Origin: Geosiphon pyriformis uo1
Lineage: Eukaryota > Fungi > Glomeromycota
Direction of reading: 5' to 3'
Length of the DNA stretch: 64,000 nt
Assembly (NCBI GenBank): GCA_016748015.1
Contig: JAAOMT010000777.1
Location: 4,347 to 68,346 of the forward strand
Positions 17,202 through 64,000 of the stretch are shown piece by piece. Position 1 is the stretch's first letter. Each line of letters starts with the position of its first letter. The position numbers were made by a program, and so were the translations under genes. Under the pieces are notes generated by a model that searched no databases, was not told the DNA's origin, and saw nothing but the letters and a program-made list of their open reading frames with translations.

Positions 17202-17204
17202 TAA

Positions 17205-25010: not shown

Positions 25011-25055
25011 TTTGAATTTGTTGTTGCTATGTTATTTTCATGGAAAAGCACCAAA

Positions 25056-29300: not shown

Positions 29301-30248
29301 NNNNNNNNNNNNNNNNNNNNNNNNNNNNNNNNNNNNNNNNNNNNNNNNNNNNNNNNNNNNNNNNNNNNNNNNNNNNNNNNNNNNNNNNNNNNNNNNNNNN
29401 NNNNNNNNNNNNNNNNNNNNNNNNNNNNNNNNNNNNNNNNNNNNNNNNNNNNNNNNNNNNNNNNNNNNNNNNNNNNNNNNNNNNNNNNNNNNNNNNNNNN
29501 NNNNNNNNNNNNNNNNNNNNNNNNNNNNNNNNNNNNNNNNNNNNNNNNNNNNNNNNNNNNNNNNNNNNNNNNNNNNNNNNNNNNNNNNNNNNNNNNNNNN
29601 NNNNNNNNNNNNNNNNNNNNNNNNNNNNNNNTTAAAAGCAAAAAAAGTAATGCAAACACTCCAAAATATTTCAAAAGATAGTTTTTTTATAACTTAAAAT
29701 AGAATTATATTTATACTAATAAAATATTTATTATTACCTAAATTTATATTATCATTACTTAATTAAAAAATATTAATTACTTTCACACTATCAATACTTC
29801 ATGTTAATAGAATTCAAATTTAATTATACTAGACCAAATGCTCTTAATCATGACTATTGACAAAATACTAATTTCTTATTTTATTTTCTTATTTTCTTAT
29901 TTTTTTTTGTTTTTTTTTTGTTTTATTTTTTAGTTGTTATTAATTGATTAAAAAGATTAAGCACTGAGTTATTAACATCAAAAATAATCTGGTAAAAGAT
30001 CTGAAAACAAAGATAAAAAACTTAAAGATAGCTTACCAGAAAAACATAATTGTTAAAATAAACTAGTTACTATACTAAAGAAAAAAATTCATAAAAAAAT
30101 TATTAATTGAATCTCTGTTTATTATACAAAGAACTCAACCAAAATTTTTAGACTCCAAAATCTTCAGAAATTACTATTATACTTAGCTATTAAGCACTAA
30201 GTTATAGATTTGTTATTTGTTTAAACACCCAAATAATTATTTATAACA
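26343..30248 (+). mobile_element. Element G: decayed family-1 LTR retrotransposon spanning the assembly gap
   Basis: 5' LTR 26343-27068 and eroded PBS TGGTGCTTTTTATAAG. Internally deleted gag and PR (KLIFDNKL) run to 29193. 3' LTR remnant at 29632-30248. TSD ATGA/ATAA. Confidence 0.85.
29194..29631. other. Assembly gap (438 N)
   Basis: Run of N. The real size may be larger because pol, IN and ORF3 of G are unaccounted for. Confidence 0.99.
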
Positions 30249-39017: not shown

Positions 39018-40806
39018 TGAGTAAGAGGTAGAGATACCGAAAGCACACCTAAACTGTCCACTTTGGCCGAAAGGCCCAGAACCATTTCCATTAGACACTT
39101 CATGCTGTCTTCCAGCTTAGACACCGAAGACATATTAAAAGACACTGCTTCCACAACATTTCCACCACTAGTGGACACACTCGAACTCTCACTCATTACT
39201 ACATCTGCCCCTTGATCCTGTGATGAAGAGGTCACCAACGGCTGACATCCAGGGCTAGGCTGGGAAACCATTGGCTCAAGTGCATCCAACCTCTTAGCCA
39301 GCTTACCAACTTGCTCCATGAGGCTGGCGAGACTGCGCTCAAGAGTGGCGAACCTATCGTTGACTTCCATCATAACCAGTTGGGATGGCTTCATCTCTGA
39401 AGAAGAGCCATTTGTTACCACAACATTCAAACCAGAGAGGGGGAGCGAAAAAGACCTGTGAGCAATCTTTGCCCAAGAGAGACCACCAAAAGAGACTGGA
39501 CGGGCAACCGGAGCTGAGCATTTGGCATAGATGGTTGCCAGCCTGCTTTTATCTGTATCCGAGAAAACCCTACACAGTGAACTACTAGAAGACAATTTCC
39601 CACCAACTGCACAACCCAATGATGTGTGACCCAATTTCTCACACTTGGCACATCTAGCAGAAATGAGGTAAGACCAGCAGAGATTGGTGTTCCTGAGTAC
39701 TGGCATGGTTCCCACAGCAGCATTCAATGATTCAGCAGAGTCGAAACAAACAACAGCACACCTGGCCTGAGCATACATAACAGAATGATGATCAATGACG
39801 CACGTTTTCTCACCCACAGATCTAACAAAGTCCCAGATATCATGAGCATTGGTTCCTATCAGCAATGTATAGAGCAGCGCCCTATGTTGGTCCCTTACAT
39901 CCCACGCTTCCTTGTCTGAATCAGCCTTAGTCACATGCACAGCATCTTTCTCAATTAAGATGGACCACTTAGCTGCAGCCAAATCAGCCTGATCCGATCG
40001 TTTGAATTCCACCACTGCCTTCTGCCACAGCCCGATTAACTGCATCTTGATCGTCCTAATAACTCCAAACTCAGATAGCACAGCATGCACAGCCTCAGCC
40101 AATGGTTTAACTGGAATTTCTTTCACGACCACAGCCCGATCTGATCGCCCAGATGCTTTTTTGAGATCGGCGTTTACTAAGATCTTTGCATTCGCAGCTT
40201 TATTAGTAGCTTTCATTAGACTCAATTCGGAAGTAAACGTTGCCCTGATGATTCCTGAGAATTTTGAGGGGGTAGATGCCCCCCAAAACCATTGATTCCA
40301 GAAAACAACTTCCTTACCACCACAAGTTTTTCCTGAGAAGATTTGCCGGCCACTTTATCCAAGCCAATATCCAATGCGAATGATTTCCTGACTGAAACAT
40401 TGACCAAATTTCTCACAGAAAGAGGGAGCTCAAGAGGAGCATCCAAGAGAATACCATCATCACTACCATCTTTTGAGAAGTCAATTTTCCCCAATGGCTT
40501 GCCCAACGCCTTTTTGGTTTTAACCTTCGAACTTGTGGGCATCTGATCATAATCTCCACCAGCCAGAGCTCCACTTTCACCATAATCAAAGCTGGTTTTT
40601 TCCACTAGACACTCCTTTTCCATATCAACACTTTCAGACTCAGTAGTGTCCCCAGTCTCCGAACTCCATGAACAAACACCAGGAACTTCAGCAGCAACCC
40701 TTCTGTTATCAATACCCTCTGCCAACACACCTCCCTTCCTCTTTTTCCTTGATGCAACTGCTTTAAAACCACTCTCAGAACCAGAAACTTTAGCAGTCTT
40801 TTTCAT
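39014..40806 (-). pseudogene. LINE ORF1 (RRM-like + CCHC knuckle), one frameshift
   Basis: ORFs 40222-40806 and 39014-40225 are joined by a 1-nt slip in a G run near 40280. Contains CAKCEKLGHTSLGC and a C-terminal coiled-coil-like segment. Confidence 0.85.
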
Positions 40807-41132
40807 AACAGCAATAACAGAGCCAACAGTGGCCTCGTAATCGAAAAACAGTTTTGATTTATCGTACTGAATGGTAAAAAACTTCTTTCAAAAAAACTTT
40901 TGACTCTTTTTTGAGAATTTTGGATGAAGGAGAGAAAGAAGTTTTTTGGTATTTTTTTTTGGTGTTTCTGTTGAAATTTGTAATTTTTTTTTGTCTGTAA
41001 AGATAATAAAAAATTTTTGTTAAGTGTAATTCCCAATTTTTTGGTTTATTTTTGTGATTAATAGTATAAATAAATAATTTGATAAAAGTGTAATGCTTTG
41101 TAATAGTTTATTGTAAAAATTCCTAAAAGTGA

Positions 41133-43149: not shown

Positions 43150-46100
43150 TATTACAGATAATTATTTGGAGTTTCAAAGCAAATAACAAATCTGTAACTT
43201 GGTACTTAATAATTGATATAATAGTGATATCTAAAAGTTATAGTGATTTGAAGAATTTTAGTAATTTGAAGGTTTTGGTTGAGTTTTTTATATAATGAAC
43301 AATGATTCAATAGTTGTTTTTAGTAGACTTCTAGAATTGCAATTCTGCCAAATTTTTTTTTTAGCATAATAGCCAGTAATTTTTCTGGTAAGCTATTTTT
43401 GATTCTGTAAGTATTCTATCCTTGTTTTACAGGTTTTTTACCAGTCTCTTTGATGTTGATAATTCTACACATTGATTCTTAATCAATTAGTAAACAACAA
43501 AACAAATAAAAAAAATTAAAAAAATTAAGTCAAGACAATTAAGTTAGTATTTCATTAATAGCCATGATCAAGAGCTATTGTTCTAGCATAGTTAAATATT
43601 GACAGCTATTAACATGAAGTGTTGATAGTTTAGAGTTTGATGAATATTTTTCAATCAAACAATAACAACATAAATTAGATATAGATAAGTATTTTATTGA
43701 TAATTTGATGATTTTATTTTAGCAAATATAAACTATTCTTAAAGCAATTAGAAAATAGATAGAAAGGGAAGTCCAAACTAAGAAGTCTGTCTTTTTTGCT
43801 TCTAATATTATTGCTATATATACAAATTTGAAATTTTTCAATTCCTCAATTTTTTTCACTAAAAATTCTACAATTCTTTAAGAAGAATTCTGAAATTCTG
43901 AAATCCTGTGATTTTTTGTATAAGAATCCTGTAATTTCTGGAATCCTAAAATTCCTTTAAAAAGAATCCTAAAATTCCATATTTTACTATGTCTACTTCT
44001 GATTGGCTAATATATATACTACTATGATTTTTATATTTTATGAATAATATTATTCTTTTCTTTTAATATTGAGCTCTGTCAAAATTCTTGAACTTTCTTA
44101 ATTTTTTTTCTTTAATTATTTCTTGGACTTTTTTTTCAAAAATTACCTGTGTTATTTTGGTCTGTAATTTTTTAAATTAGGCATTAATTATTTTACTTAT
44201 TTGATTAGTAATAACTGTATTTATTATTGTATTAAGTAGTATTTTTGGTCAGTCTTAAAATCCAGCATATAATTAATAGATAGCTTATGTTTGTATTATT
44301 AGATTGTTTTTTCCCACAAATTGCTTAAGTTATTGTAGTATTGTTATGTCAAATAATTGTTTTGTTTTATCTGTATATAAGTTCTGAATATTCAGATATT
44401 GTCTTAAGTAGAAATAACAAAAGTTTCTTAAAAATTAATGTATCTATCAATTCCATGTTTTTTTGTCAACTCTTGATATAGTATAATTTTTGTTTGTTTT
44501 TTTTTTGCTGATTTTACTTTTATGATTATCTTGTCAATAATGTTTTCTAGTTTTCTCTGTACTTCATATTGAGATTTCTTTCTTGTATCTTTATATTGAA
44601 TGGTTTGTTAGTTAATTGTAATTTTCATATGTTGTTGTTGAATTAATTGAAAAAATTATTGAGCCAATATGTAAATATTATTAGTAATTTCCATTTTTTT
44701 GATATTTTTTGTTACATTTTAACTCTTTATATAGAGTTTTGATGTTTTAATTTAACATATTTATGTTGATAATTATTAATGGTTCTAGATCTTGTAGAAT
44801 TTTTTCTGGTTGAACTAGTATTTTCTGTATTTCGAATTGTGAAATATCATAAATAGATGATGATACTATATTGTGATAGAGTTTTAATCAATCACTATGT
44901 GCTGTTTTGATTAAAATTTTGTTGTTCTATCTTAATTTATGAGCTTTATTTCCTAGAATTTCTTCTATGTAAAATGGTTTGTCCTATTTGAGATCAAATT
45001 TTCTATTCTATTGTTTTTTTGCTTTAATATAATGTAAGAGTACTTTGTCTTCTATCCTAAATTAAACTAGTTTGTCTGGTAATTGGTTATTGTGTTTTTC
45101 TTTTTATTTTTTTTGTGATTTTTGTATATTATTAGCTGCTTTTCACTATTTGTTTTCTAGAGTTTCCATTAAGTCATATGTTCTTTTCAATAATATTTCT
45201 TTGGAAATTGTCTTCTGTTATTGGTTTAGTTGGATATGTCTTGACTTTTATTTCAACTGGTAGTGTTGTTGTTCTACTATATATTAATTCAAATAATGTT
45301 GTTTGTGTAGTGTCTTGTTTTATTGTTCAATAAGTAAATAATACTAATAGTATAAATAAATCTTATTTGTCTTGGTTTTTTTGATTGATTTTAGTAATTG
45401 CTTCACACAGTATTCTATTGAATTTATCAACTAAGCCATTAGTTTGTTAATAATATGATGATGATAGTGGTCATTTAATTCCAAATTTTTAACTTAATTT
45501 TACCAATGTTCTGTTTACAAAGTAAGTTTTTTGGTCTGATAACTATTCTTTTAGACATCTGTGTTAACATATTAAGTCTTGATGAATAAATTCAGCTATA
45601 GATTTTGCATCTGCTCTTTGAATTGTTTTTGCTTTTGGTTATTTTGTGAAATAGTCTATAGTTACTACAATATATTTGTTTCCTTTGCTGATAATTGTCA
45701 GTAGTTTGAATAAGTCAATTCCAACGTGATCAAATAATTGTCCTATTTTAATTGGTTTCAATGGTTTGTTGAGTCTTGTTTCTTCTCTTCTTTAACAAGT
45801 ATCACAATTTTGAATTTATTGGATGATATTTGAATATATTAATAGCCAATAGTATCTTTTTCTGGTTTTTTTTATGGTTGCTTCTTTATAAAAATGTCCT
45901 GTCATTGAATCTGAGTGCATATTAAATAGTATTGTTTCTTTTTTTGGTTCTGTGATTACTCTAAATAGTTGGTCTGGATCCTTTTTTTTTTGATATAATA
46001 TATTTTAGTAGTTGATAAAATATTTGGATTATTGTTTTATGTTGCTTTGTTCTTTTTGAGATAATTTTTCCTTAAACAATTGAATATCAATATATTGTTG

Positions 46101-46532
46101 AAGTTGTTAATATTTTTGTGTATTCATCTTTTGTTATATTTTTGAGTTAAAATGTTCTTAGATTTGTTTTATTCATAACAAACTGTTGGCATTTTCATTT
46201 TTTTTTTCCTTTTTTATAATGTACTGTATAATTAAATAGTAAAAGCTCTATTTTCTATCTTATATGTTGATTGTCTTTGAATTCTTGTTTCTGAATTGAA
46301 GTTTATTCTTTGTAATTAGTATATACATTAAACTTTTGGCTCAAATATTCCTTTTATTTGATAACTGCCCAATAAATAGTTAAGTTTTTAGTGCTGGTGT
46401 TCCATAGTTTTTTTCTGCTAGACTCAAATTTCAAATGACATATACTACTAAATGTTCTTTTCTATTCAATCTTCTTTAAGATAATACAGCTTCTAATACT
46501 TGACTTAATACATCAGTAATAATGATGAATTA
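43150..46532 (-). mobile_element. Element C: family-1 3' half (RH, IN 44747-46127, ORF3 44063-44694, PPT, 3' LTR 43150-44049); interrupted by B
   Basis: Reverse complement aligns with A 55440-58827 (NYGTPAL, MHSDSMTGHFY, GIDL, SDQKTYF, DRAQY*). Confidence 0.88.
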
Positions 46533-47465
46533 TGTTACTCATAGAATATTGAAAATATAGTATTATTAGTCAGTAGATATTAGCCAATCAGATGTAGATA
46601 TAGTAAATATGAAATTCCAAGATTCCTTTCAGAAGAATTGCAGGATTCCAGAAATTTTAGAATTCTCTGACAAGGAATCACAAGATTCCAGGAATTTCAT
46701 GATTCCTGTTGCAAGAAATTGAGGAATTAAGAAATCTCAAATATATATAGTAGTAGCATTAGAAGCAGAAAAAAGAGAATCAACACCAAGAATTCTTAGC
46801 TTAGTTATCACAATTCTTAAATAAATAATTATTTACTATATCAAATTCATTCTTCACTATCAACACTTCATGTTAATAGTAACTGATACTTAACCATACT
46901 AGAACAATAGCTCTTAATCATGGCTATTGACAGGATACTAACTTGCGAATTGCCTTGGCTTATTTCTTAGTTTCTCTTTTATCTTTTTTTGTTTTCTTTG
47001 TTGTCTACTAACTTGATTAAAGGATTTACTCTTGGAGGACTTATGGAGTAATAAAACTTACTTAAAACAATACTTACTCTTGGAGGACTTATGGAGGAAT
47101 AAAACTTACTTAAAACAATACTTACTCTTAGAGAACTTACAGAAGAATAAACTTGCTTAAAACAATACTTACTCTTGGAGAACTTACGGAGGAACTGCCA
47201 TCAGAAAACAGCACTGGTATACACTTATGGAGAATATCATATTAGGAGAATCATCAATTATCAAGCTGAGCAAGCAATCAACAAAACTACAGTTTCAGGA
47301 AACTACTGATAAACTGTTATCATTAAATTTCTGTTCATTATACAAAGAACTTAATTAGAAAACCTTCAAATAAAATATCTTCAAATTATCATCGTCACCA
47401 ATCACTTTGCACACCAAGTTATGGATTTGTTATTCACTCAACACCCCAAGAATTCACCTGTAACA
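46533..47465 (+). repeat. 5' LTR of B
   Basis: TGTTAC...GTAACA termini, CCAAT box (AGCCAATCAG), GGA(A)TTCC repeats and TATATATA near 46742. Confidence 0.92.
47026..47194. repeat. 48-bp tandem repeat x3.5 inside the B LTR
   Basis: TTACTCTTGGAGGACTTATGGAGGAATAAAACTTACTTAAAACAATAC units start at 47026, 47074, 47122 and 47169. Confidence 0.9.
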
Positions 47466-47467
47466 TT

Positions 47468-47484
47468 TGGTGCTCCCTGTGAGG
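47468..47484 (+). promoter_or_regulatory. Primer binding site of B (TGGTGCTCCCTGTGAGG)
   Basis: Lies 2 nt after the LTR and is complementary to a tRNA 3' end CCUCACAGGGAGCACCA. This resembles elongator tRNA-Met or tRNA-Ile(UAU); identity not verified. Confidence 0.85.
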
Positions 47485-48658
47485 TATAATTCTACAGAGA
47501 ACTAGCACCAACAAGAACAAACCAAAAGTGGCAGAATCAGAAAATATAGGAGCAAACCATTTAGGATTCACAAAATTCTTGTTTCAACAATACAGCCAAC
47601 AATTAGAATTAAATAGTAATCATTACCCAGCCAAATCAGTCTTCAACTTCTATGTCAATGACAAAATCACTAAATTCTTAAGAGGAACAATTAACATTGA
47701 AACAGCAAGAGAAAACTTTTACACAGAATTATTCCAACACACCAACTTACCAAGAAACTATAATTTTGCACCAATAATCAGAAAAATCAACCAAACTATT
47801 GAAAAGTACACTCAACAACAATTTCCTATTACCTATACAGATAAAAGCAAAGGAAGGTTACAAACATTAGCAGTAATGCCTAAAGAGATACAACTACCAA
47901 CCTGGAAGAAACAAAGAATTGAATCCCCACCATATTTATCATATCATCACACACTTGGAAGCACTATCAATATTTCATCTGCAGGTGTGTCCACATCAAA
48001 CGTGACATCAATATTTAGACAATTTCCATTCCAAAGTAAACAAAAAAAAGTGGAGTTATTAGGACCATATGACAAATATTTCGAGCGATTTAAATTATGA
48101 TCACCAACACCATCAGGAATTCAATCACTGCCACTTCCACCAGATTTTGGAATCTCTGATTCATGGAAGGTAACGGAATGAAGAAGAAGAAACTGAAAAT
48201 CAAGAATTCATTTACCAGAACCCAATCACTGAAAACCTGGAAATTGAAACCCTGAATCTTCAGAACCAGCAAAATTTAAATTCAGTAAATTTGGAAGTTG
48301 AAACTCCAAATATTCAGACACCACCAACTCAGGATAATCGAAACCCCAATCTAATTAATCAACCAAACTTATCTCCAGTAATCATTATTGATCAACCACC
48401 AATTGATCCAATAGCTGAACCCATACAGCAATCACTTCAACTACCACCTTAAAAAAATCAACAACCACTTCAACAGCCACCACAACCACTCAACTTAGAC
48501 CCAATGGCCTATACACCAATCACAAAACTGGATAATTTCACCAGCAAAGAAGACAACACTCAAGTATGGCTGAATGATGTGGAAAAAGCCATTGTAGTCA
48601 ACGAATGGAATGACATCTGAGCAATACAAGCCATTCCCTATTTTCTTAAAGATACCAC

Positions 48659-49543
48659 TATTACTCATAGAAATATAGGAAATATATTAGCATAATTATT
48701 AGCCAATTAGAAGTAAGCATAGTAAATGTGGAATTCCAGAATTCCTCTCAAGAATTGCAGGATTCCAGGAATTTCAGAATTCCCAACAAGGAATTACAGA
48801 ATTCCAGAATTCCAGGATTCTTCTCAAAGGAATTGCAGGATTCCAGAAATTCCAGGATTCCTGTCATGAAGAATTGAGGAATTGAGGAATCTTAATTATG
48901 TATATATAGCAGTAGTGTTAGAAACAGAAAAGACAGAATTGATACCACAGAATCCTTAGCCTAGAAATGCCATCATCAAATAAAAATAATTATTTCATAT
49001 CTCAAATTCACTTTCCACTATCAACACTTCATGTTGATAGTAATTGATACTTAACCACACTGGAACAATAGCTCTTGATCATGGCTATTGATGGGATATT
49101 AATCTGCAAATCGCCTTGACTTATTTCTTTTGCTTTTTTTATTTTCTTTATTTCTTTTTCTTTATTTTATTTTGATTTATTGTTGTGTACTAATTGATAA
49201 AAAATTAAGCACTGAGTTATTGACGTCAAAGATAGCCTAGTAAAAGACCCAGAAATAAGAGTAGAATTTATATATTATCGGATAGCTTACCAAAAGGGCA
49301 CAACTGTCAGACTAAATCCAGCCACCATGCTGAGAAAGAAATTGGGAAAACTTTTGGAAAGATACATCTACCATCAACACTATTGAATCTCTGTTCATTA
49401 TACAAAAGATTCAACCAAAACCTTCAAATTCATAAAAACTTTCAGATACAACACTTGCAGAACATCACCAACAGAAATAGCTGTTGAGCACCAAGTTATG
49501 GGTTTGTTATTCAATTCAACAGCAGAAATAATCACCTGTAACA
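48659..49543 (+). repeat. 5' LTR of A (885 bp)
   Basis: Direct repeat of 57957-58827. Ends TGTAACA. Contains GGA(A)TTCC arrays at 48731-48890 and TATATATA near 48901. Confidence 0.95.
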
Positions 49544-49545
49544 TT

Positions 49546-49561
49546 TGGTGCTCCCTGTGAG
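49546..49561 (+). promoter_or_regulatory. Primer binding site of A
   Basis: TGGTGCTCCCTGTGAG, identical to B. Confidence 0.85.
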
Positions 49562-49605
49562 ATATAATTCTACAGAGAACCAGCACCGACAACACCAAAC
49601 CAAAA

Positions 49606-52600
49606 GTGGCAGAATCAGAAAATATAGGAGCAAACCATTTAGGATTTGCAAAATTTTTATTTTAACACTATTGTCAATACTTGGGATTAAACCACAATCA
49701 TATATCCGCCGAATCAGCCTTCAACTTCTATGTCAATGAAAAGATTTCCTCTTTATTAAGAACACCAGTGAATACTGAATCAGCAAGAGAAACTTTCTAT
49801 AGGGAGTTAATTCAAAACACCAACCTGCCAACAAATCATAATTTCGCATCCATCATCACTAAGATCAACAAAGAAATTGAACACCACACTTAACAAAGAT
49901 ATCCAATTACATACGCTAGTAAAGACAAGGAAAAATTACAAACACCAGCAGTAACACCCCGAAAAATACAGCCACCTCCTTGGAAGAAAAACAGAGTTGA
50001 ATCCCCAAGTAACCCATCCTACCACTATACACTTGGAAGTGCCATCAACATATCATTAACCGACATGTTCCAATCAACTGTGACATCAGCATTTGGACAA
50101 TTCTCATTCCAAAGTAGACAAAAGAAAACAGAATTGCTAGGACCATATGGCGAATACTTTGAGGGATTTAATTCGCAATCATCAACCCCATCAGGGCTTT
50201 GATTACCACCGCCTCCACCAGATTTCGGAATCTCTGATCTGTGAGAAGCAGCAGAATTAGAAAAAGAGGAAGAAGAATCAGAGGATCAAGAATTCACTTA
50301 CCTGCACCCAATCACTGAAAACCTGGAAGTTGAAATCCTGAACATCCAAATTCAGCAACAGTTAGAAAATCCAGAAATCGAAACTCCAAATATTTGAATG
50401 CTGCCAAATCAAAGAAATCAAAACCCCAAATTAATTAATCAGCAAAACTTACCTCTGATAATCATCATCAATCAACTGCCAATTAATCCCATAGCCGAAC
50501 CCATACAGCAGCCACTTCAGCTACCATCCCAACAGCCAGGACAACAACAACTGCTTCAACAGCCACCACAACCACCTAACTTAGACCCAATGGCCTACGC
50601 ACCAATTGCAAAACTTGACAACTTTATGGGTGAAAAAGATGATGCTCAAATATGGCTGAATGATGTAGAAAAGGCCATCACAGCCAATGAATGGAATGAT
50701 GCTCACATAATGCAAGCCATTCCCTACTTTCTCAAAGATACCGCCAATTCATGGTACTAGAGCTTGATTAATAAACCACAAGATTTCAATGCCTTTAAAG
50801 CGGAATTCCTAAAATACTTCAGCAACAACAATAACATCAATTGCCTAGTTAATACATTCACCACTATGAAACAAAGAGAAACTGAAGCAGTCACCACTTA
50901 CCTGGGATGCTTCCATCAAAACCTATGCCAAATTCAAGCAATTGATGCCAACTATTTCACAGCACCACAGATACTCAATCAGTTTATCTGTGGCCTGCAC
51001 AGCAGCATTTTGCAACATGTACATCCATTGTATCCAGGCACTCTTCAAGATGCAGTCACACGTGCCAGAAATTTTAAATCCGCTGAGTCAGAGGCTAACC
51101 ATGCCCAAGCCGTTAATCTAGTAATAAACGAATCATCTGAATTGGATTCCAAGTTGGAGAAGTTCAGTGAATTAATTAATAAGAGATTGGAAGGATACTT
51201 AGCTGACAATTACGCCATTTATTAGCCTCCACAACAACGCAATAATCAAAGAAACTCTAATCGTGCCCAAAATCAACCACACCCATCTTCATCAACCAAT
51301 CAACAGTGGCAACAGGAAACGTGTATCTGCCATTATTGTTGTAAACAAGAACATATCCAAATTGACTGTCGCCAGCATTTAAATAACCAACAATTGGGAA
51401 ATCAATATTGAAATCCCGATTGCCAGTTCCAAACTCTGAATCAGTACCCAAATCAAAACCCATCTGTCTACCTACCAGTGACGCAGTCATCAGTCTATTA
51501 GTCTCCAGTATATCAACTTCCAATTTATCAGCCGCAGTCACAAGTAATATATCAACCACAGCCACCAATAATCTATCAACCCCAACAGATCCAAACACCA
51601 CCCCAAAGCTTACCACTCAACAGAACCCAAAGACAGAGAATGACTCAACAGAGCTGGAGATTGACGATGGTAGTCCATCAACTGATCCCCAGTTCTTTAC
51701 AGCAACCATCTGGATTACGCCAGCAGAATTCGGGTACTGGTCAACCCCAGAATCTGAATTCCCAGAACTATTTAAGTCTCCTGGTCACCCCAGAAGATGC
51801 TTCAACCAACAATCCAGCATTTACCTAAGAACAACCACTCACCAGTAATATCTCACCTGCTACCATTACCAAAAATGAGTCATTGTCTACTATTTTTCCA
51901 TTCGAATTTAAGGAAACAGCTGTAATACCATTATTTAGTGGAGCCGCTATTGAAGCCAAACCAATTACTGCAATATACACTGACGCCAAAGTCAAAGGAC
52001 AATCCATCAAATTGATCCTGGACAGCGGTTTTGCAGGCAGCATAATCACAAAACAACTCATGGATCAATTAGGTCACCGAGTTGATCGAGCTGCCAGTGC
52101 TAGAATCATTACAGCCAATGGAGCAACCAAAACCCCAATCGGCGAAATCGACAACTTTCTTTTTGAAGTCAATGGCATCATGACTCCCATTAAAGTTCTA
52201 GTGATAGAAGCCACTCAATACCAAGCTCTCGTAGGTAATGACTGGCTATCTAAAGTCCACACAACGTTAGACTGGAACACCCAGAAACTCCAGCTAATGT
52301 ATCAGAATTAACACATATGTGTTCCGGCCATGTGTGGCCACTTCAAAACTCCTCCAAGAGAGAAACTATTGATTGAACTGGAGGAGGAGAAAGAAAAGCC
52401 TACTTGAAAAGCCTACCAAGTGTTGTAAGCAGACAAAGAGCACAACAAACTACTGCCAATACTCTTCTGGGATGATAGCAACAAGGAAAAAGGGAAACAA
52501 AAGGAAGAACTTACTTGGGAAACTAATGACCTGACATGGACCGACAATGATAAGAGCGAACCGACTTCAAGCTGGGAATGAGAAGAGGACAAAGAAAACA

Positions 52601-55600
52601 AAGAAAAAGCAAAAGAAGAAGAGACCACCCAAACTACCATTGCTTATACCACCTACACTATACCACAACGATCTACCTATCATTAACTTAAGCTTATATG
52701 CATCAATTGCGGCAAAAAATTGTTGTCAATGGGCGTATGCTGTGGGAACGATAAGGAATATTCAATGGCAACTAGGTTCTATTGCCACCCATGCATCTTT
52801 GAACACTTTGGAAGACCAAAACGAGTAGGGAAATGGGACAATCAGCTATGCTTAGCTTGTGGAGAGACTCTCTTGGATAAAGGAATGTGGCATGACATTC
52901 CTGGACATGGAGGAATGTGCAACATAGAGTGTCAATACACAATTCTAATCAGTGACTGGGTTAAAAAGAGAACACCAATTGAAACCGCTTGGCAAAGAGC
53001 AGTGCAACGATTAGACAGTTGTCCACATGACAATGACAAAATTTGGAGAATGGCAACCGCCAAAATTGAAGACACATTACCAGAAGAAATTCGGACAATT
53101 AAAAACAACCCATCAGAACCCATCAAGCTTGACTGGGACGCAGAGCCAGTCATAAACTTCCTGGAACCAGAAGAGTTCCATGAACACTACCAAAACTTGG
53201 CACCCACTAGAAAAGAGCAAGAACAATGGCTAGCACAGTTAAATACAAAACTGTGTCGCCATTGTTTAATTCCCAGTAACTTTGAGTATTGTAATGATTG
53301 TGATCTCATTTACAATCTATCACCACACATAATTTACTTAATCCCTGAAGAAGAAGAACCAATCAGCAGCTGTGCATTGGAATCAGAATTGCTGATTAAT
53401 CGCGATCCAAACTCTGATGATGACGACAAAAACCCCAGTTTCAGCTCTGTTCAAAATGGCAATAACGACAAAAACGATTCAGACTCAGATTCAAAACCTG
53501 ATTTAAACTATGAACAATACATTGCACTACCAGATCTCTCCAAGGAACAAGAGTTGAAATGGTATAGTGACAATGGGGAAGGTATTATGTCAGAACGTGT
53601 GTATGATACAGATGCAAGATTTGATCTGAGATATCCAGGAAAAGATGCCATTAAATTGGAACCACATTCACGCACCTGCATTGATCTGAAAATAGCACTA
53701 AAAATTCCGGCAACAACAATGGTTCAATTAGCATCTAGGAGTAGTTTAGCGAAAAGAGGGATCAATATAAGAGGAGAAATAATTGACGCGAGATATGTAG
53801 GAAATATCATCGCCATGCTACAAAATGACTCAGAAAAGGCCTATATAATAGAGCCCAATGAAAAGATAGCACAGGCAATATTCCTGCCTCTGGTTAGAGT
53901 AGCTCAATTAGTATCAGTGGGAAATAAGAAAAAATTAGGAATAACAGCAAGAGGAATACAAGGATTTGGATTAACAGGTAGAATAGATGTACCAGTTAAT
54001 ATGGCTGAGAAAAAAATTGTTGGCCAAGGAGAAATTATCTCAACTGGTCAAGTTATTTTCATCCCACCATATAGCCAGTACATGCTAGCAATAGAACAGA
54101 AGGAAAAAGAGCAAGAACAAATTTTTGAAGCTGAAGCAAACCTTTGTGAATCAGGGAAGATTGGGTTGATCAATCTCCACATACCAGCCAAAAACTATAG
54201 CAGCATAAAAATTCCCATCTACAACAACACTGACAATGTCATCAACATACCAGAAAGAACTACCACTGAATATTTAACCACAGAAATAGAAGACCAACCA
54301 CCAAACCCCATTCCAGACTTTCCACAACTTTGTAGATATGTTGACATCACATCACAAACAATCTATGGACGAGACAAATATTACTTGCTCCAACTAAAAC
54401 AATTGGAACAGATGAACATAGGAAACTTAAATCCACTCCAATATATGCAGCTCAAGATGTTACTCAACAATTTCAACAACATCTTTGCCAGCGAAAATAA
54501 GTTTGGCTGAACTGACATCATTCAGCATCAGATTAAGACTGGAGATGCAATGCCAATCAAACAAAAAGCATACAAAGTGCCACCAGCCAGCCACGAGATT
54601 ATTCGTCAAGAGATAAACAGAATGCTTGACAACAGACTAATTCAACCATCAATGAGTCTATGGTCATCACCAGTGGTACTCGTTCATAAGAAAAATAAAA
54701 AAATCTGGTTTTGTGTAGACTACAGGAAACTCAATGGTGTAACTTGTAGAGACAGTTATCCAACTCCACGAATACAGGAATTATTCGATGCTTTCAGTAG
54801 GAACAAATAGTTCTCCACATTAGATTTGGACAGTGGTTACTGGCAAGTAGCCATGAATTCAGCTGACAAAGAGAAGACAACATTTACTACTAGAGAAGAG
54901 AATTTCAAATTTGAAGTGATGCCATTCGGCTTAACCAATGCCCCAGCAACTTTCCAATGGCTAATGGAAATTGTTTATATGGACTTATTGTGGAAATCAG
55001 TAGTTGTATACTTGGATGACACCAATGTATTCTCAAAAACGTTTGATGATCATCTTCATTATCTTTAACAAGTGTTCGAAAAACTAAGAAGAGCAGAACT
55101 AAAGTTAAATGCAACAAAGTGCTTCTTTGGCAAGACAGAACTAAAATTCTTGGGACACATAGTCAGCAAAGATGGCATCAAAACAGATCCAGAGAAAATA
55201 GAGATAGTAAAGAACTTTCCAGTGCCAACCAATATAACAGAACTGAAATCATTCTTGAGATTTGCCAGCTACTATCATTATTTTATCAAGAACTTTTCCA
55301 AGATAGCACAGCCACTCAATCAACTGCAAAACAAAAATGCGAAATACGAATGAACAGAAAGTCAACAAGAAGCTTTTGATATTCTGATGAAAAAGCTCAT
55401 CCAAGCTCCAGTACTAATCTATCCAGATTACAGCAAACCATTCATCATCACCACCAATGCATCTGGCCAAGCATTGGGAGCAGTATTATCTCAGAGAGGA
55501 CTGGACAGCAGAAAACATCCAGTAGCATATACCAGCAGAGGTTTAACACCAGCCGAAAAGAACTATGGAACACCAGAACAAGAACACTTAGCAATATACT

Positions 55601-55812
55601 GGGCTGTCATGAAATGGAAAGAATACTTGAGCCAGAAGTTTGAAGTATACACAGATCACAAAGGATTAACATCACTCCAAAAACAAGAATTTGGAGATGG
55701 AAGACAGTTAAGATGGAAAATAGCACTCACACCATACAATTATACTATACATTACAAAAAGGGAAAAGACAACAGAAATGCTAACAGTTTATCATGAATA
55801 AAACAAATCTAA
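49606..55812 (+). pseudogene. A gag-PR-Cys-rich-dUTPase-RT-RNaseH polyprotein (single frame, in-frame stops only)
   Basis: ORFs starting 49681, 50398, 50764, 51640, 51883, 52720, 54550, 54826, 55072 and 55387 share one frame. Capsid from MAYAPI (50590), CX2CX4HX4C at 51328-51369, ILDSG at 52015-52029, YLDD, and RH TNASG/EQEHLA/VYTDH. Ends IKQI* at 55810-55812. Confidence 0.92.
53560..53980 (+). other. dut: dUTPase domain within the A polyprotein
   Basis: All five trimeric dUTPase motifs are present: A(G>R)FDL, RSS, IIDA(G>R)YVGNI, IAQ and RGIQGFG(S>L)TG. The deviations are G>A/C>T changes, and B keeps AGFDL. Confidence 0.92.
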
Positions 55813-55876
55813 GAACATTTTAACCCAAAAATATAATAAAACCAGAACAATACTAACAGAAAAATATAACAAAAAG

Positions 55877-57259
55877 ATGAACATACAAAAATATTAACAA
55901 CTGCAACATTATATAAACACTCAACAGTTTAAGGAGAATTTATTTCAAACAGAACAAAAGAGTATCAAACAACAATCAAAATATTTTATCACTCACCAAA
56001 ATATACTTTATCAAAAAAATAGAAGGGATCTAGATCAACCAACCAGAGTAATTATGGAGCCAGAAAAAGAGACAATATTATTCAACATGCACTCAAATCC
56101 AACAGCAGGACATTTTTACAAAGAAGCAATCATAGAAAGAACTAGAAAACGATACTATTGGCCATCAATATACCCAGACATTATTCAATATGTTCAAAAT
56201 TGTGATGCCTGTCAGTGAAAAGAAGGAACAAAACTCAGTGAACTATTAAGACCAATCAAAGTGGGACAACCATTTAATCATATGGGAATTGATTTAGTCA
56301 GACCATTAACAATCACCAGCAGAGGAAACAGATACATAGCAGTAGCTATGAATTATCTCACTAAATGGCCAGAGGTGAAAGCAATTTAAAGAGCAGATGC
56401 AGAATCCGTTGCCAAATTCATTTATCAGGATTTGATTTGTCGACATAGATGTCCAAAAGAATTATTATCAGACCAAGGAACTCATTTTGTGAACAGAACA
56501 TTAACAGAATTGAGCCAAAGATTCGGAATCAAGAGACCATTATCATCATCATACTATCCACAAACCAATAGATTAGTAGAAAGATTCAACAGAACATTGT
56601 GTAAAGCAATAGCCAAGCTCAGCCAAAAAAACCAGAATGATTAGAATTTGTTCATACCATCAGTACTATTTGCTTATTGGACAACAAAGCAGGATACTAC
56701 ACAAGCAACACCATTTGAATTAGTATATGGGAGAATAGCAACGTTACCAGTAGAAAGAAAAATTAATACATATCCAGCGGAACCAATAACAGAAGAAAAT
56801 TTTCAAGAAACATTGCTGAGAAGAACATATGACTTAATGGAAACATTGGAAAACAAACAAAGAAGAGCAGCTGATAATATCCAAAAGTCACAAGAAACAC
56901 AGAAAGAAAGACATGATAGTCAACTACCAGACAAACCAGTTGAATTCAAGATCGGAAACAAAGTATTACTGTATTGTACCAAAGCGGAAAAACAATGGAG
57001 TGAAAAATTTGACCCCAAATGGGACAGACCATTTCACATAGAATAAATTCTAGGAAATAGAGCTTACAAATTAAGATTGGATAACAAAATTTTAACCAAA
57101 GCAGCACATGGAGATCGACTGAAACCATATCACAACATCATGCTACTATCTACCAGTAACATTCCATAATTAGGAGTACAGAGAATACTAGTTCAACCAG
57201 ATGAGATTCCACAAGATCTGGAACCAATCATTATTATCGATAACAACACGTTAAATTGA
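55877..57259 (+). pseudogene. A integrase, stand-alone ORF (~460 codons)
   Basis: Own ATG in a different frame from pol. HHCC (MHSNPTAGHF..CDAC), GIDL, SDQGTHF, QTN(G>R)LVERFN and a GPF-like KWDRPF. No chromodomain. Confidence 0.9.
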
Positions 57260-57283
57260 TCCATCAAAAGAATATATAAAGAC

Positions 57284-57943
57284 ATGGTAGACGTGACAGG
57301 AAATATCAGAAAAATGAAAATTACAGACAACATTTATTCACTAGCACAACAACTCTTTCAATTAATCCAACACCAGAAAATGGAGATTACAATCAATCAA
57401 CAAACCATTCGATATCAAGATACTAGAAAGACATTGCAACTCAGAACACAGAAGAAAACTGAAAATACTGTGGACAAAATCATGGCAAAAGTAAAATTAG
57501 CAATAAAAGAATTGACAAAAGAGTCACTATATTAAGAATTGACTAAAGAAACTTGGAATTGGTAGATACAACAATTTCCACGAAACTATTGTTATTTTTA
57601 TTTGGGACAACATGTAAATATTCAGAATCTGTATATGGATAAAACAAAGCGATTATTCAACAAAAGATTACTACAACAATTAGAACATTTTGTGAGAAAG
57701 AACAACTTATCCACACAAGCCCAAGCCATATACTGAATACACACAGCATTTCAAGATAAACCAGAAATATTGCTCAATAGAGCAATGGATATGGTTACCA
57801 GTAATCAATTGGGAAAAATCACCAATGCTCAATTTGAAGAATTACAGACCCAAATAACACAAATAATTCTCAAAAATGAAATCCAGGAAATACTTCAAGA
57901 GGGGGAATTACATGAGTTAGATTTTGACGGAGCTCAATATTAA
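57284..57943 (+). pseudogene. A ORF3 (~210-219 aa, unknown function)
   Basis: One frame with three transition-type stops, ending LDFDGAQY* at the PPT. Homologues in C, E and F. Confidence 0.8.
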
Positions 57944-57956
57944 AAGGAGAAAATAA
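57942..57956 (+). promoter_or_regulatory. Polypurine tract of A
   Basis: AAAAGGAGAAAATAA immediately before the 3' LTR. Confidence 0.85.
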
Positions 57957-58827
57957 TATTATTCATAGAAATATAGAAAATATATTAGCATAATTATTAG
58001 CCAATCAGAAGTAAGCATAGTAAATGTGGAATTCCAGGATTCCTTTTAGAAATTGCAGAATTTCAGGAATTTCAAAATTCTCAATGAGGAATTGCAGGAT
58101 TCCAGAATTTCAGGATTCCTCTCAAAGAAATTGCAGGATTCCAGGAATTCCAGAATTCCTGTTGTGAAGAATCAAGAAATTGAGGAATCTCAATTATATA
58201 TATATAGCAGTAGTATTAAAAACAGAAAAAACAGAATCAATACCACAGAATCCTTAGCCTAGAAATGCCATCATCAAATAAAAATAATTATTTTATATTT
58301 CAAATTCACTCTCCACTATTAACACTTTATGTTGATAGTAATTGATACTTAACCACGCTGGAACAATAGCTCTTGATCATGGCTATTGATGGAATACTAA
58401 TCTGCAAATTGCCTTGGCTTATTTCTTTTGCTTTTTTTATTTTTTTTATTTTATTTTGATTTGTTGTTGTGTACTAATTGATAAAAAATTAAGCACTGAG
58501 TTATTGACATCAAGAATAGCCTGGTAAAAAACCCAGAAATAAGGGTAGAATTTATATATTATCAGATAGCTTACCAGAAAGACACGACTGCCAGACTAAA
58601 TCTGGCCACCATGCTGAGAAAGAAATTGGGAAAACTCTTGGAAAGATACATCTACCATTGACACTATTGAATCTCTGTTCATTATACAAAGGACTCAACC
58701 AAAACCTTCAGATCCATAAAAACCTTCAGATACAACACTTGCAGAACATCACCAACGGAAGTAGCTGTTAAGCACCAAGTTACAGGTTTGTTATTCAATT
58801 CAACAGCAGAAATAATCACCTGTAACA
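57957..58827 (+). repeat. 3' LTR of A (871 bp)
   Basis: Preceded by the PPT. Differs from the 5' LTR by transitions (U3 aligned in detail) and a 14-bp indel in the T-rich tract. Confidence 0.95.
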
Positions 58828-60370
58828 CTGCCAATTCATGGTATCAGAGCTTAATCAATAAACCACAAGACTTCAATGCCTTCAAAGTGGAATTTTTAAG
58901 ATACTTCAGCAACAATAGGAGAAACTAAAACAGTCACTACTTACCTGAAACACTTCCATAGAAATCTGCACTAGATTCAGGTAATTGATGCCAACTATTT
59001 TACAGCGCCACAGATTCTTAACCAGTTTATCCGTGGCCTGTGCAGCAACATCTTACAATATGTATGCCCATTGCATTCAGGCACCCTTCAAGATGCAGTT
59101 ACACGCACCAAAGATTTTGAATCAGCTAAGTCCGAAGCCAATCATGCCCAAGCTGTTAATCTAGTAATAAACAGATAATCTGAATTGGACTCCAAATTGA
59201 AACAATTCAGGGATTCAATTAATCAGAAATTAGAAAAATACTTAGCTGACAATTGCACAATTTATTAACCACCTTAACGACACAGCAATTCAGGAAACTA
59301 CAATTGTTCCCAAAATCAAGCACATCCCTCAACATTAGCCAATCAGCAGTGACAGCCAGAGATGCATGTCTGCCACAACTGTAGTAAACAAGAGCACATC
59401 AGAGCAAACTGCAATGCTTATAACTACCAGTGATCAGGAAATCAATATAGAAACCCCGATTGCCAATTTCAAACTCTGAGATATCAACAAAATCAGGAAC
59501 AATATCAAAACATTTACCTGCCAATAACGTAGCAGCCAATTTACCAAGCACCAGTATATTAGACTCCAGTTTATCAACTGCAACCACCAGCAATATATCA
59601 ACTGCAGCCACAAGTAATTTATCAACTCCAATCAATTCAGACACCACCTCAAAATTCAGTTAATATAACATCAAGCCACCCCAGACCTAGAATCACACAA
59701 AACTGGAAATTGGTGATGGTTGTTTACCAACTAATCCCCAGTTCTTCTAACTTACCATCAGAATCACATTTTCAGAATTCAGGTACCAGAGCCACCCAAA
59801 ACTCGAATTCTCAGAACTATTTAAGTCTCCTGGTTACCCCAGAAGATATCACTACCAACAATTCAGGATCCAACCAACAACAAGCACTTATCAACAACAT
59901 TCCACCAGCAACTGTCACCAATGACGAATTACTCGCAGCCATTTTTCCCTTTGACTTGAAAGAAACAATTGAAATTCTGTTATTTAGTGGAGCAGCTTTG
60001 GAAGAGAAACCAATTACTGCCATGTATACAGATGCCAAAATTGATGGCCATACCATCAAACTAATTTTGGATAGTGGATCAGCTAGCAGTATCATAACAA
60101 GACAACTCATGGATCAATTAGGTCACTGAGTTGACCGAGCTGCCAGTACAAGGATCATTATAGCTGATAGAGTGACCAAAACTCCAATAGGTGAAATAGA
60201 TAACCTACCTATTAAAATTAATGGCATCATGATACTCATCAAAGTCTTTGTGATAGAAGCCACTCAGTACCAAGCTCTTGTTGGAAATGATTGGCTATCC
60301 AAAACAAATGCCGTACTCGATTGGACGATGCAAGAGCTCCAACTGAGCCAAAATAGTTAACATACTCAAG

Positions 60371-61212
60371 CACCAGTAGTATGTGGCCACTTTAAACCAA
60401 CCAACTCACAACCATTAATCAAACTTGAGGAGGAAACAAAGAAACCAATATGGAAAGCATATCAGGTTTTGTGGGCTGATGTTAACTATAATGAACTGCC
60501 GCCCATACTCACCTGGGACAAAGACAATCATGGAAAAGGAAAGCAGAAAGAAGAACATATCTGAGAAACCACCATTGGCACTTGGATTGATGACAACCAA
60601 AATGAGTTGCCATCTACACTAAGTTGGAAAGAAAAAGGAAAGGGAAAGGAAAGAGAAGACAACCTACCAGAGGAAACTAAATCAACAAAAGACACCACCA
60701 GTGGCTGGACAAGTTTGTACTCCATCCATGAGCCACTACCAGAACCACCACACATACTGCTCAAATGCAAAAATTGTGAGAAGAAACTCTCCACCAGCAG
60801 TATGTGGCCACTTTAAACCAACTAACTCGCAACCACTAATCAAACTTGAGGAGGAAACAAAGAAACCAATATAGAAAGCATATTAGGTTTCATGAGCTGA
60901 TGTCAACTATAATAAACTACTGCCCATACTTGCCTGGGACAAAGACAACCATGGAAAAGGAAAGCAGAAAGAAGAACATACCTGGGAAACCATTATTGGC
61001 ACTTGAATTGATGACAACCAAAATGAGTTGCCACTTACACTAAGTTGGAAAGAAAAAGGAAAGAGAAAGGAAAGAGAAGACAACCTACCAGAGGAAACTA
61101 AATCAACAAAAGACACCACCAGTGGCTGGACAAGTTTGTACTCCGTCCATGAGCCACTACCAGAACCACCACACATACCATTCAAATGCAAAGATTGTGG
61201 GAAGAAACTCTC
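60371..61212 (+). repeat. 421-bp tandem duplication inside B (PR to Cys-rich linker)
   Basis: 60371-60791 and 60792-61212 align without gaps. The length is not a multiple of 3, so it frameshifts B. Confidence 0.95.
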
Positions 61213-64000
61213 TTCCATGGGAGCTTGAATCACACCAGACAAAAATCACTGGATGTGAACCCACTATTATTGCAAGCCTTGCCACTGCAAATGGTATGGC
61301 TACCTAAAAAGACAAGACAAGTAAGACAACAAACCATGTCTCGCTTGCGATGAACAGTTGCTTAACGAAGCAATGTGGAATGTGTGACACTTTGTACCAG
61401 TACACAATTCTCATCAGTGACTGGGTGAGTTGTGGTACACTAATAACTGCCACTTGGCACCAAGCAATCTCTCGCCTGGATGGATATTTACATGACAAAG
61501 ACAAGATCTAGTGGATGGTGAACACCAAAGTAGAAGGCACCATGCCCAGCGAAATTTTGGAAATCAAGAACAATTCTCCAGAACCAGTCAACATTATCCT
61601 AGTCCCCAACCCAGATGCTTTCTTCGACATTGAGACCAACTCAGAAGACTTCCACAAACATTATCAAAATTTAGCACTGACCAGAAAGGAACAGGAAGAG
61701 TGGTTAGCACAGCTAAACACTCAATTATGTGATTACTGTTTGATCCCATATAACTTTCAATATTGTAATGAGTGTGACCTCATTTACAATCTACCAATCC
61801 ATATAATCTACACGATTCCAGAGAAAGAGGAACCAATTAGCAGCTGTATATAGGAATCAGAAACACCATTCGATTCCGATTCAAACTCCAACAACGATGA
61901 TGACAAAAACACTAGTTCCAGTTCCATTCAAAATAGCGATAACAATGACAATGATTCAAACTCAGATTCAAACTCCGATTTAAAATATGAACAATATATC
62001 GCAATCTCTGATCTGATCAGAGAATTGGAACTAAAATGGTTCAGCGATAATAATGAAGGTATTATGTCAGAATGTGTGCATAATACTGATGCCGGATTTG
62101 ATCTGAGGTATCCAGGAAAAAATGCCATCAAATTGGAACCACATTTATGCATCTGCATTGATTTAAAAATAGCACTGAAAATTTCAGCAACAACAATGGT
62201 TCAATTAGCATCTAGGAATAGTTTAGTGAAAAGAGAAATTAATATAAAAGAAGGAATAATTGACATGGGATATGTAGGAAATATTATCACTATGCTACAA
62301 AATGACTCAGAAAAGGCCTATATAATAGAGCCCAATGAAAAAATAGTACAGACAATATTCCTGCCTCTGATTAGAGTAGCTCAGTTAGTATTAGTGGGAA
62401 AGAAGGAGGAATTAGGAATAACAGCAAGAGGAATACAGGAATTCGGATTGACAAGTAGAGTAAATGTACCAGTCAATATGGCAGAAAAAAAAATTGTTGA
62501 CCAAGAAAAAATTATCTCAATGGGTCAAGCAATTTTTATTCCATCATATGGCCAGTACATGATAGAGATAAAGCAGGAAATAAAAAAACAGAATCAGATT
62601 TTTGAAGCAGAACTAACCTTTTGTGAATCAGAAGAGATTGGACTCATCAATCTTTATATACCAGTCAAAAATTACAGCCACATCAAAATTCCCATCTACA
62701 ATAATACAGGAAATGTCATAGTAATACCAACTGGAACCACCATTGGATACTTAAGCACTGAAATAGAGGATCAACTACCAAGCACCATTTTGAACTTTCC
62801 ACAGCTTTGTAGATATGTTGATATCACATCACAAATAATATATAAACAAAGCAAATGTTATTTGCTCCAACCAGAACAATTGGAACAAATAAACATGGGA
62901 TACTTAAATCCACTCTAATATATGCAACTTAAGATGTTGCTTAACAATTTCAATGACATCTTTGCCAGTGAAAACAAGTTTGGCCAAACTGACATCATCT
63001 AACATCAGATCAAGACTGAAGATGCAATGCCAATTAAACAAAGAGCATACAGAGTACTACTAGCTAGCCACAAGATTATTTGTCAAGAGATAAACCAAAT
63101 GCTTGAAAATGGGCTAATTCAGCCATCAATGAGCCCATGGTCATCACCAGTAGTACTCGTCTGGAAAAAGAATGAGAAAATCCACTTTTGTGTGGATTAT
63201 AGAAAACTCAATGGAGTAACTTGTGAAAATAGCTATCCCACTCCACGGATCCAAGAATTATTCAATGTTTTCAGTGGAAACAAATGGTTTTCAACATTAG
63301 ACCTGGACAGTAGTTACTAGCAAGTAGCCATGAATCCAGCTGACAAAGAAAAGACAGCATTCACCACCAGAGAAAAAAATTTTGAATTTGAAGTAATGCC
63401 ATTTGGCTTAACCAATACACCAGTCACTTTCCAATGGCTAATGAAAATCATTTATATTGGCTTGTTGTGGAAATCAGTAGTTGTATACTTGGATGACACC
63501 AATGTATTTTCAAAAACATTTGATGATCATCTTCATCATCTTCAACAAGTGTTTGAAAGATTAAGAAGAGCAGAACTAAAGTTAAATGCAACAAAGTGCT
63601 TTTTTAGCAAAACAGAACTAAAATTCTTGGGACACATAGTCAGCAAAAATGGCATCAAAACGGATCCAAAGAAAATAGAGATAGTAAAGAACTTTCCAGT
63701 ACTGACCAATATGACAAAACTGAAATTATTCTTGGGATTTGCCAGCTACTATCAACATTTTATCAAGAACTTTTCCAAGATAGTGCAGCCACTCAACCAA
63801 CTGCAAACCAAGAATACAAAATATGAATGGACAGGAAGTCAACAAAAAGCTTTTGATATTCTAAAAAGAAAGCTTATTTAAGCTCCAGTACTGATCTATC
63901 CAGATTACAGCAAACCATTCATTATTACTACCAATGCATCTAGCCAAGCATTGGGAGTGGTACTATCTTAGAGAGGTCCAGACAGCAGAAAACATCCAGT

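Follow-up and report, generated by a model that had tools for sequence, protein, structure and literature searches.

Long terminal repeat (LTR) retroelements are, in the standard model, taken to package integrase (IN) as part of a Gag-Pol or Pol polyprotein. In the profile of the Metaviridae (Ty3/gypsy) issued by ICTV, the international committee for virus taxonomy, IN accordingly lies within pol and the third gene is env, with transmembrane and surface domains (PMC7879559). Among fungal elements a dUTPase between protease (PR) and reverse transcriptase (RT) is already described in the accessible part of PMC2864245, e.g., for Postia, and an LTR expansion is put at 41.2% of the Geosiphon genome in that of PMC11952901. 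Here we analyse a stretch of 64,000 nt from Geosiphon pyriformis uo1 (contig JAAOMT010000777.1, positions 4,347 to 68,346; hereafter the window, to which all unprefixed coordinates refer) that holds a decayed Ty3/gypsy-type LTR element, element A (48659-58827, + strand; delimited by LTRs, open reading frames (ORFs) and Pfam domains), in which IN occupies a gene of its own. We find this to be a real, conserved variant of the Ty3/gypsy plan, apparently undescribed, whose notable parts are the free IN and the protein family encoded by a downstream ORF (ORF3), the dUTPase being ordinary. We are highly confident that the architecture is real and that IN starts at its own AUG. A diverse lineage that keeps IN outside the polyprotein needs some other way of producing it in a eukaryotic cell and of delivering it to the cDNA. 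The elements with such a split may belong to the Geosiphon LTR expansion.

Gene order in element A and its relatives

A single frame on the + strand (49543-55812) leads in A from Gag through PR, a Cys-rich region, dUTPase and RT to RNase H (RH). It contains 21 premature stops, and no frameshift is seen between the PBS (primer-binding site) region and the TAA at 55810-55812 that closes it. Its parts are a Gag capsid domain (50602-51075; Pfam Retrotrans_gag and Ty3_capsid), a CCHC knuckle read off the translation (about 51328-51369), an aspartic protease (51982-52251; gag-asp_proteas, E 2.3e-9), a Cys-rich region with six CxxC-like pairs (52699-53298; no Pfam match), a dUTPase domain (53587-53979; Pfam dUTPase, E 4.8e-17), the RT core (54685-55164; RVT_1, E 1.6e-29) and a Ty3/gypsy-type RH (55426-55737; RT_RNaseH, E 2.1e-32). 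An A-rich spacer of 64 nt without ATG (55813-55876, + strand) separates the Pol stop from the IN gene (55877-57259, + strand; six premature stops), which opens with an ATG at 55877 in the +1 frame relative to RH, encodes HHCC, DDE core (rve) and weak SH3-like end domains, and closes with a TGA at 57257. ORF3 (57284-57943, + strand; three premature stops) follows, its stop overlapping the polypurine tract (PPT; 57942-57953, + strand). The original prediction, made from the letters alone, had read A in this way (one frame from gag to RH, an IN with its own ATG and a third ORF abutting the PPT), and the frame read and Pfam searches bear it out.

Two further copies in the window likewise carry stops ahead of IN. 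Element E (16257-26032, - strand; 4-bp flanks GTGC/GTGT) represents a second family with the identical layout, gag-PR-Cys-rich-dUTPase-RT-RH, then IN, then ORF3, its dUTPase lying at 21695-21280, its Pol stop at 19436, its IN from 19367 and its ORF3 at about 17685-17184 (hidden Markov model (HMM) E 6.6e-15), all on the - strand. As had been proposed, E shares this order, including dUTPase and an ORF3 homologue, with unrelated LTRs (longest match to those of A 17 nt) and a different gag N-terminus (that of A has no match in E); the claim that its PBS differs was only partly confirmed, the first 7 nt being identical in A and E. The expected IN start codon of E reads ATA. Copy B of the A family (43786-46530, - strand) preserves the RH end, a stop at 46160, the IN ATG at 46127, ORF3 and the start of an LTR. 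All three elements stop right after the RH end. In B and E, IN lies in the RH frame, behind stop codons, with spacers of 30 nt (46157-46128) and 66 nt (19433-19368), respectively, and the spacers of A and B hold two or three in-frame stops. Both junction TAAs are common to A and B although only 4 of 31 CAA/TAA codons read TAA in the IN frame of A (13%) and 10 of 32 in that of B (31%), which makes independent decay of the junction stops unlikely. In run X1 (40 of 498 variants listed) about 55% of the read depth lacks one A at 55871, giving a spacer of 63 nt; since 32,076 contigs of that run aligned, the A family is very abundant in that sample.

Relatives were recovered as soil-metagenome loci (numbered with L; the best 80 of 517 confirmed) with a scan profile built from free-standing INs. 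The RH end is off the contig in 22 of them, and the junction was scored in the other 58. Not one of these 58 has IN fused to RH, so that the split predicted for A is conserved: IN lies in another frame in 41, while 17 keep the RH frame with a stop intervening, the share expected without any frame constraint. An ATG stands at the exact aligned IN start in 52 and within one codon of it in 55, and many of these relatives have long intact ORFs on both sides of the junction. IN homologues (the best 120 of 567, from a search that left out proteins above 805 aa) measure 359-453 aa, and 118 of the 120 begin with Met; viral contigs gave distant INs only. A separate IN cistron followed by ORF3 is supported as conserved architecture, not decay.

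Lineage, dUTPase and ORF3

The trees were built from database hits with Ty3/gypsy-type domain content, with neither named references nor a true outgroup. In an RT-RH FastTree of 221 rows, all 43 split rows fall into one 56-row group (support 96) that also holds eight IN-less polyproteins and five joined or fused proteins, and a quick IQ-TREE run on 77 hand-thinned rows supports the group at 94. A joint RT-RH and IN tree of 39 rows unites 18 split elements with the fused pair P0249/P0250 at 96/98, leaves P0255 outside and places A as sister to L014 at 98/98, while monophyly of 20 split rows is not rejected by the approximately unbiased (AU) test (p 0.35). These comparisons are best read as a single lineage whose IN, although detached, is native to it. 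Its closest named dUTPase-bearing proteins are gene models of Geosiphon pyriformis G9A89 (71-82% identity; 5 of 120 listed), which point to Geosiphon or something close to it as the host, and the IN homologues include, among the matches listed, Rhizophagus irregularis, R. clarus and Cetraspora. The proposed restriction to Glomeromycotina is not established: the named relatives are Geosiphon, Rhizophagus and Cetraspora, and the 80 loci come without an assigned host.

The dUTPase of A is 74-81% identical to Geosiphon proteins and is missing from every one of the 80 loci, including the 25 that cover PR through RT. The Cys-rich region likewise found no match among the 80 loci, and an Atlas search gave no usable match for the corresponding part of P0169. 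Of the zinc finger claimed for this region, the CxxC-like pairs stand, being kept in A, in the host copy into which A is inserted and partly in E, in the face of the missing Pfam match; the region is predicted to bind zinc. Both dUTPase and Cys-rich region are local to the Geosiphon-type families, where we take them to be later gains. The proposal of a distinct, undescribed clade is upheld in its conserved layout and in the lack of a literature description, and weakened where it leaned on dUTPase and Cys-rich region, which do not define the lineage (0 of 25), and by the fused Pol-IN relatives that stand nearby.

Downstream of IN, at distances of -38 to +316 nt, a complete ORF of at least 110 aa is present in 32 of the 47 loci having 500 nt of room, and 31 of these 32 match one ORF3 profile, itself built from 29 of them. 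In a leave-one-out test 31 of 32 alignment members beat their own shuffles, the failure being a truncated Geosiphon fragment, and pN (nonsynonymous) is lower than pS (synonymous) in all ten ORF3 pairs tested. The ORF3 of A directly matches that of L014 (P0442, E 6e-6), and its link to the family passes through P0408, P0442 and P0436; with an HMM of 28 locus ORF3s, A's own broken ORF3 does not score above shuffles. Eight of ten ORF3 matches looked up are from Geosiphon. The AlphaFold model of the L078 ORF3 is a compact, all-helical domain (mean predicted local distance difference test (pLDDT) score 95.6) for which Foldseek returned nothing at E 0.001 in PDB or BFVD and an Atlas search no usable match; the best VIA-align result reaches Z 5.2 over 69 residues, and the fold may yet be a known one. 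Pfam gave no family common to ORF3 members. In 33 ORF3 sequences no 19-residue window exceeds a hydropathy of 1.6, and with no membrane-like segment ORF3 is not env and lends no support to the virus-like complexity that had been suggested. Alignments and the predicted structure thus portray ORF3 as one lineage-wide, helical, non-membrane family without a clear fold match. The downstream ORF of one locus (L011:6546-6941) is no ORF3 homologue and ends in a helix-turn-helix.

Junctions and the production of integrase

An A at position -3 precedes 56 of 75 IN starts, as compared with 113 of 415 internal in-frame ATGs. The spacers, for their part, are poor in ATG (28 in 42 spacers vs 72 in shuffles, overlaps and gaps above about 500 nt being excluded), and this together with the Kozak A supports initiation at the conserved AUG. 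The Pol stop and the IN ATG lie -20 to +6 nt apart in 10 of 55 loci and 24-115 nt apart in 34. Three junction classes can be told apart, i.e., stop/start overlaps, spacers with repeated words and a hairpin before the ATG. Repeated TAACGG, TAACCC, GGATWAC and GACACC words occur in spacers about 90 nt before IN that contain no ATG; the 17 word-rich loci, picked by eye (L001, L003-L011, L013, L015, L021, L025, L033, L037 and L048), have none where shuffles have 18. These words are possibly an internal promoter or a translation signal, and the spacer of A has one 10-mer in common with them. The hairpin, a stem-bulge-hairpin of about 40 nt that ends a few to about 30 nt before the IN ATG, is found in 25 of the 80 loci (20 training sequences, three near-copies and two weak cases), e.g., at L017:5740-5792, L042:5186-5241 and L049:4457-4506, with 22 further loci. 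In the alignment of 20 sequences 98% of cells are paired and 7 of 12 pairs change on both sides, the structure having been derived from the same 20 sequences on which pairing was scored. Rfam gave no match at E 1 for the 11 loci tested, and the pattern is absent from the viral contigs searched.

Several sub-lineages carry further peculiarities around these junctions. Spacer lengths in the sub-lineage of the window are multiples of three (24 at L014:775-798, 30, 66 and, for about half the reads, 63), which is not so in the lineage as a whole. In ten hairpin-class loci (L042:4348-5163 and nine others) Pol runs 216-401 aa beyond RH; this extension has an acidic stretch as well as a Cys/His-rich domain that is conserved but has no Pfam family, and the Cys-rich region in the window shows no detectable relationship to it (probability 0.7%). 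L055 has two extra ORFs between Pol and IN, a fusion of NUDIX and deoxynucleoside kinase (6939-8249) and a second ORF (8216-8632), which form an overlapping chain up to the IN ATG, this ATG overlapping the end of the preceding ORF. Nine loci picked by eye have a single in-frame TGA that separates RT from the ORF on the protease side, with CTA coming next in eight of them (L027:2882, L028:5039, L036:2498, L041:2745, L053:5332, L056:1515, L067:870 and L073:3290), L055:5468 differing from the pattern. TGA-CTA is a readthrough context, which suggests programmed PR-RT readthrough in this sub-lineage. The sequence TACTAAC at 55852-55858 was considered as a branch point and ruled out, 98% of the depth having C at 55854.

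With Gag-protease-RT-RH ending at its own stop and IN and ORF3 as separate genes, we postulate that IN is translated from its own AUG by ribosomes that, close to the Pol stop, restart on the full-length RNA or are brought to it. To judge from the sequence patterns, such a restart or internal-entry route seems to us an even call. Inefficient restart would yield less IN than Gag, a ratio that frameshifting could not provide where Gag and Pol share one frame, as in A. Eukaryotic ribosomes as a rule require special signals to re-initiate downstream of a long ORF, and the sub-lineages may use differing ones: stop/start overlaps, short unstructured spacers (A), repeated words or the covarying hairpin. 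Not being carried in the polyprotein, free IN would need RNA or protein contacts to arrive at the cDNA, as reported for the packaging of foamy-virus Pol, and ORF3 is a candidate helper for it. It is unlikely, in our estimate, that the most extensive version holds throughout, i.e., an undescribed major LTR lineage that is high-copy in Geosiphon, occurs in other arbuscular-mycorrhizal fungi and is polycistronic, with free IN made by translational coupling through several junction signals (a new RNA motif among them) and an ORF3, its fold not in PDB, that delivers or regulates IN.

A number of observations weigh against one lineage that restarts on its full-length RNA. A search among longer proteins (120 listed of 927) included seven IN homologues at 41% identity or more, of which P0250, P0255 and P0251 look like continuous Pol-IN proteins; P0249 is less clear-cut and groups with P0250. 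Fused forms near the lineage are a minority of those retrieved, and they may be under-sampled, the query profile coming from free-standing INs. In an RT-RH bootstrap tree of 47 rows the chosen group is one clade in only 26% of replicates. Gaps above 115 nt, up to 1600 nt, in 11 of 55 loci are hard to explain by restart at the Pol stop; the spacer words of one sub-lineage, far above shuffles (TAACGG 17 vs 0.1 expected), resemble Myb-type DNA-binding sites and thereby favour an internal promoter; the hairpin model has no match in the window, and A shows no junction signal beyond the shared 10-mer; and readthrough would be suited by the spacers that keep the RH frame, which measure 24 nt in L014, 30 nt in B, 66 nt in E and 63 nt in roughly half the reads covering A. 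Some of these points lend themselves to ordinary scanning on subgenomic mRNAs for IN and ORF3, driven by an internal promoter that lies within the spacer or ahead of it, or else spliced from the 5' LTR, which we regard as possible, if rather doubtful. The strong Kozak context and ATG-poor spacers would equally suit a short 5' untranslated region, AT-rich tracts and the excess of TAACGG, TAACCC and GACACC words would fit a promoter, the long gaps would pose no difficulty, ORF3 too needs a route of its own given its variable distance from IN, and the ORF3s of LTR elements typically come from spliced messages in the accessible part of PMC5408684. Subgenomic messages, however, do not require the stop/start overlaps in 10 of 55 loci, and in all 17 word-rich spacers the 22 nt leading up to the IN ATG contain no AG, which speaks against an adjacent splice acceptor.

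A Pol-IN fusion, whether it came about through readthrough of the stop, through frameshifting or through splicing out of a small intron across the junction, could draw on the same in-frame spacers, on the TGA-CTA codons between PR and RT, by which recoding probably occurs in the lineage, and on the gene models P0247, P0248 and P0252 that join Pol to IN. In these three, however, the C-terminus of RH and the N-terminus of IN are missing, as though gene models had been joined, and P0248 is placed among split loci in the RT-RH tree; moreover, phase is free over the 58 loci, in-frame stops stand in the spacers of A and B, and the IN Met is conserved at one position, all of which renders fusion improbable. 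IN might instead be of foreign origin, a Ginger/GIN-like transposase taken up downstream of an RT gene, which would account for its separate ORF; in favour of this are Ginger-like proteins with OTU, UCH or Ulp1 domains at 28-39% identity among the longer IN homologues listed. Since the IN tree repeats several RT-RH subgroups, four Ginger-like rows lie across a 91-support branch from the IN of the lineage, and the N-terminal extension of IN recurs in the fused relatives, sequence comparison largely refutes capture, to which we attach very little credence. Decay or misassembly of an ordinary gag-pol-IN element would agree with the premature stops in the first frame of A, with LTR differences that are all transitions and with a junction frame that varies among copies, yet it leaves unexplained why A, B and E all stop directly after RH and why relatives, many with long intact ORFs on either side, are split in 58 of 58 cases. 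These relatives rule it out as the lineage-wide cause, and we find it scarcely credible as an account of the split. A lineage with a conserved IN cistron that has its own AUG, perhaps reached by restart or internal entry, can serve as a natural test of how eukaryotes translate downstream ORFs, of a new RNA motif and of a conserved accessory protein without a clear known fold. Such elements will be misread by classifiers looking for RT, RH and IN within a single ORF; their database entries either go by the name "DDE-type integrase/transposase" or consist of joined gene models.

Surroundings of element A and comparison with known systems

The 5' LTR of A (48659-49543, + strand; 885 bp) is 90% identical to the 3' LTR (57957-58827, + strand; 871 bp), and the 72 differences over 871 columns are, without exception, transitions; with a CpG observed/expected ratio of 0.31, this designates A as a heavily deaminated, dead copy. 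The PBS (49546-49561, + strand) begins with TGG 2 nt past the LTR. The element is flanked by CCAC on the left (48655-48658) and CTGC on the right (58828-58831), consistent with a single 4-bp target-site duplication decayed at CpG. Repeated GGAATTCCAG-like units with three TTCnnGAA sites, which we take to resemble heat-shock elements, lie in the LTR at 48720-48890. A is inserted within the gag of a host copy of its own family (47359-64000, + strand, i.e., 47359-48658 and then 58828 to the window end) that carries dUTPase and RT, has its RH-IN junction beyond the window and contains a 421-bp tandem duplication (60371-61212). Elsewhere, at 33642-30938 on the - strand, a gag region is soon followed by an ORF3 homologue (32311-31972) and then a family-2 LTR, which suggests an internally deleted derivative retaining ORF3. 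A LINE-like element (LINE, long interspersed nuclear element) at 34330-40890 (- strand; long ORFs with endonuclease, RT and RNase H motifs read by eye) has GC and CpG above its surroundings and appears to break a gypsy gag. The window also has a tandem array of 10-bp period (10561-10759) and a run of 437 N (29195-29631).

Our literature search, outside which lay Repbase, Dfam, GyDB, the Geosiphon genome papers, supplements and subscription papers, found no description of an LTR lineage with a separate IN. None appears in the accessible parts of PMC2864245, PMC3248453, PMC2774666, PMC5408684, PMC6431247, PMC11952901, PMC13465315, PMC12440569, PMC11673190 and bioRxiv 2021.03.30.436303 and 2026.05.21.726589. 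Troyka and Kuafuorterviruses were considered as prior descriptions and ruled out, their IN being inside Pol.

Element A has the LTRs, PBS and PPT of the Metaviridae, their PR-RT-RH-IN order and a gag with capsid and nucleocapsid. With canonical Ty3/gypsy elements (PMC7879559) it shares, besides these terminal features, a Ty3-type capsid, a CCHC knuckle and a single gag-pol frame, which is allowed there; it differs in that their IN is inside pol and their third gene is env, whereas here IN is separate and ORF3 non-membrane. Because a stop precedes IN in A, B, E and all 58 loci, we class the group as a Ty3/gypsy variant and not as a canonical member. Neither a membrane glycoprotein as third gene, as in errantivirus-like elements, nor a chromodomain, as in chromoviruses, was found, the latter having no match in the IN of A at E 0.1 or in the Pfam labels of the 120 listed homologues. 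LTRs and RT are present and IN falls outside the Ginger-like rows, which sets A apart from Ginger/GIN. Four proteins with IN before RT (P0328, P0331, P0339 and P0343), which we take to be Gmr1-like elements, have an unusual IN placement in common with our lineage, but their IN is fused upstream of RT, an arrangement A does not have, and their rows branch elsewhere in the trees.

Closer in gene content are the dUTPase-bearing fungal elements (PosPlaTy3-5 of Postia, and those of Phanerochaete and Tuber), for which the accessible part of PMC2864245 likewise gives a dUTPase between PR and RT, as found in A, together with one fused Gag-Pol ORF or gag plus pol and no separate IN. The IN of A, for its part, has no chromodomain. 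LTR elements of bdelloid rotifers also combine a dUTPase in pol with an extra downstream ORF, but have IN in pol and ORF3s that are env-like, GDSL, DEDDy, coiled-coil or transmembrane (accessible part of PMC5408684), and no Pfam or clear fold match ties our ORF3 to those families. Foamy viruses, finally, offer a working analogy for a free IN in that an enzyme precursor arises separately from Gag and must be packaged by way of RNA or protein contacts, as set out in the accessible parts of PMC3196705 and PMC3705302. They are, however, Retroviridae with env in which all of Pol is made apart from Gag, whereas in the lineage described here only IN is free and RT-RH stays with Gag.

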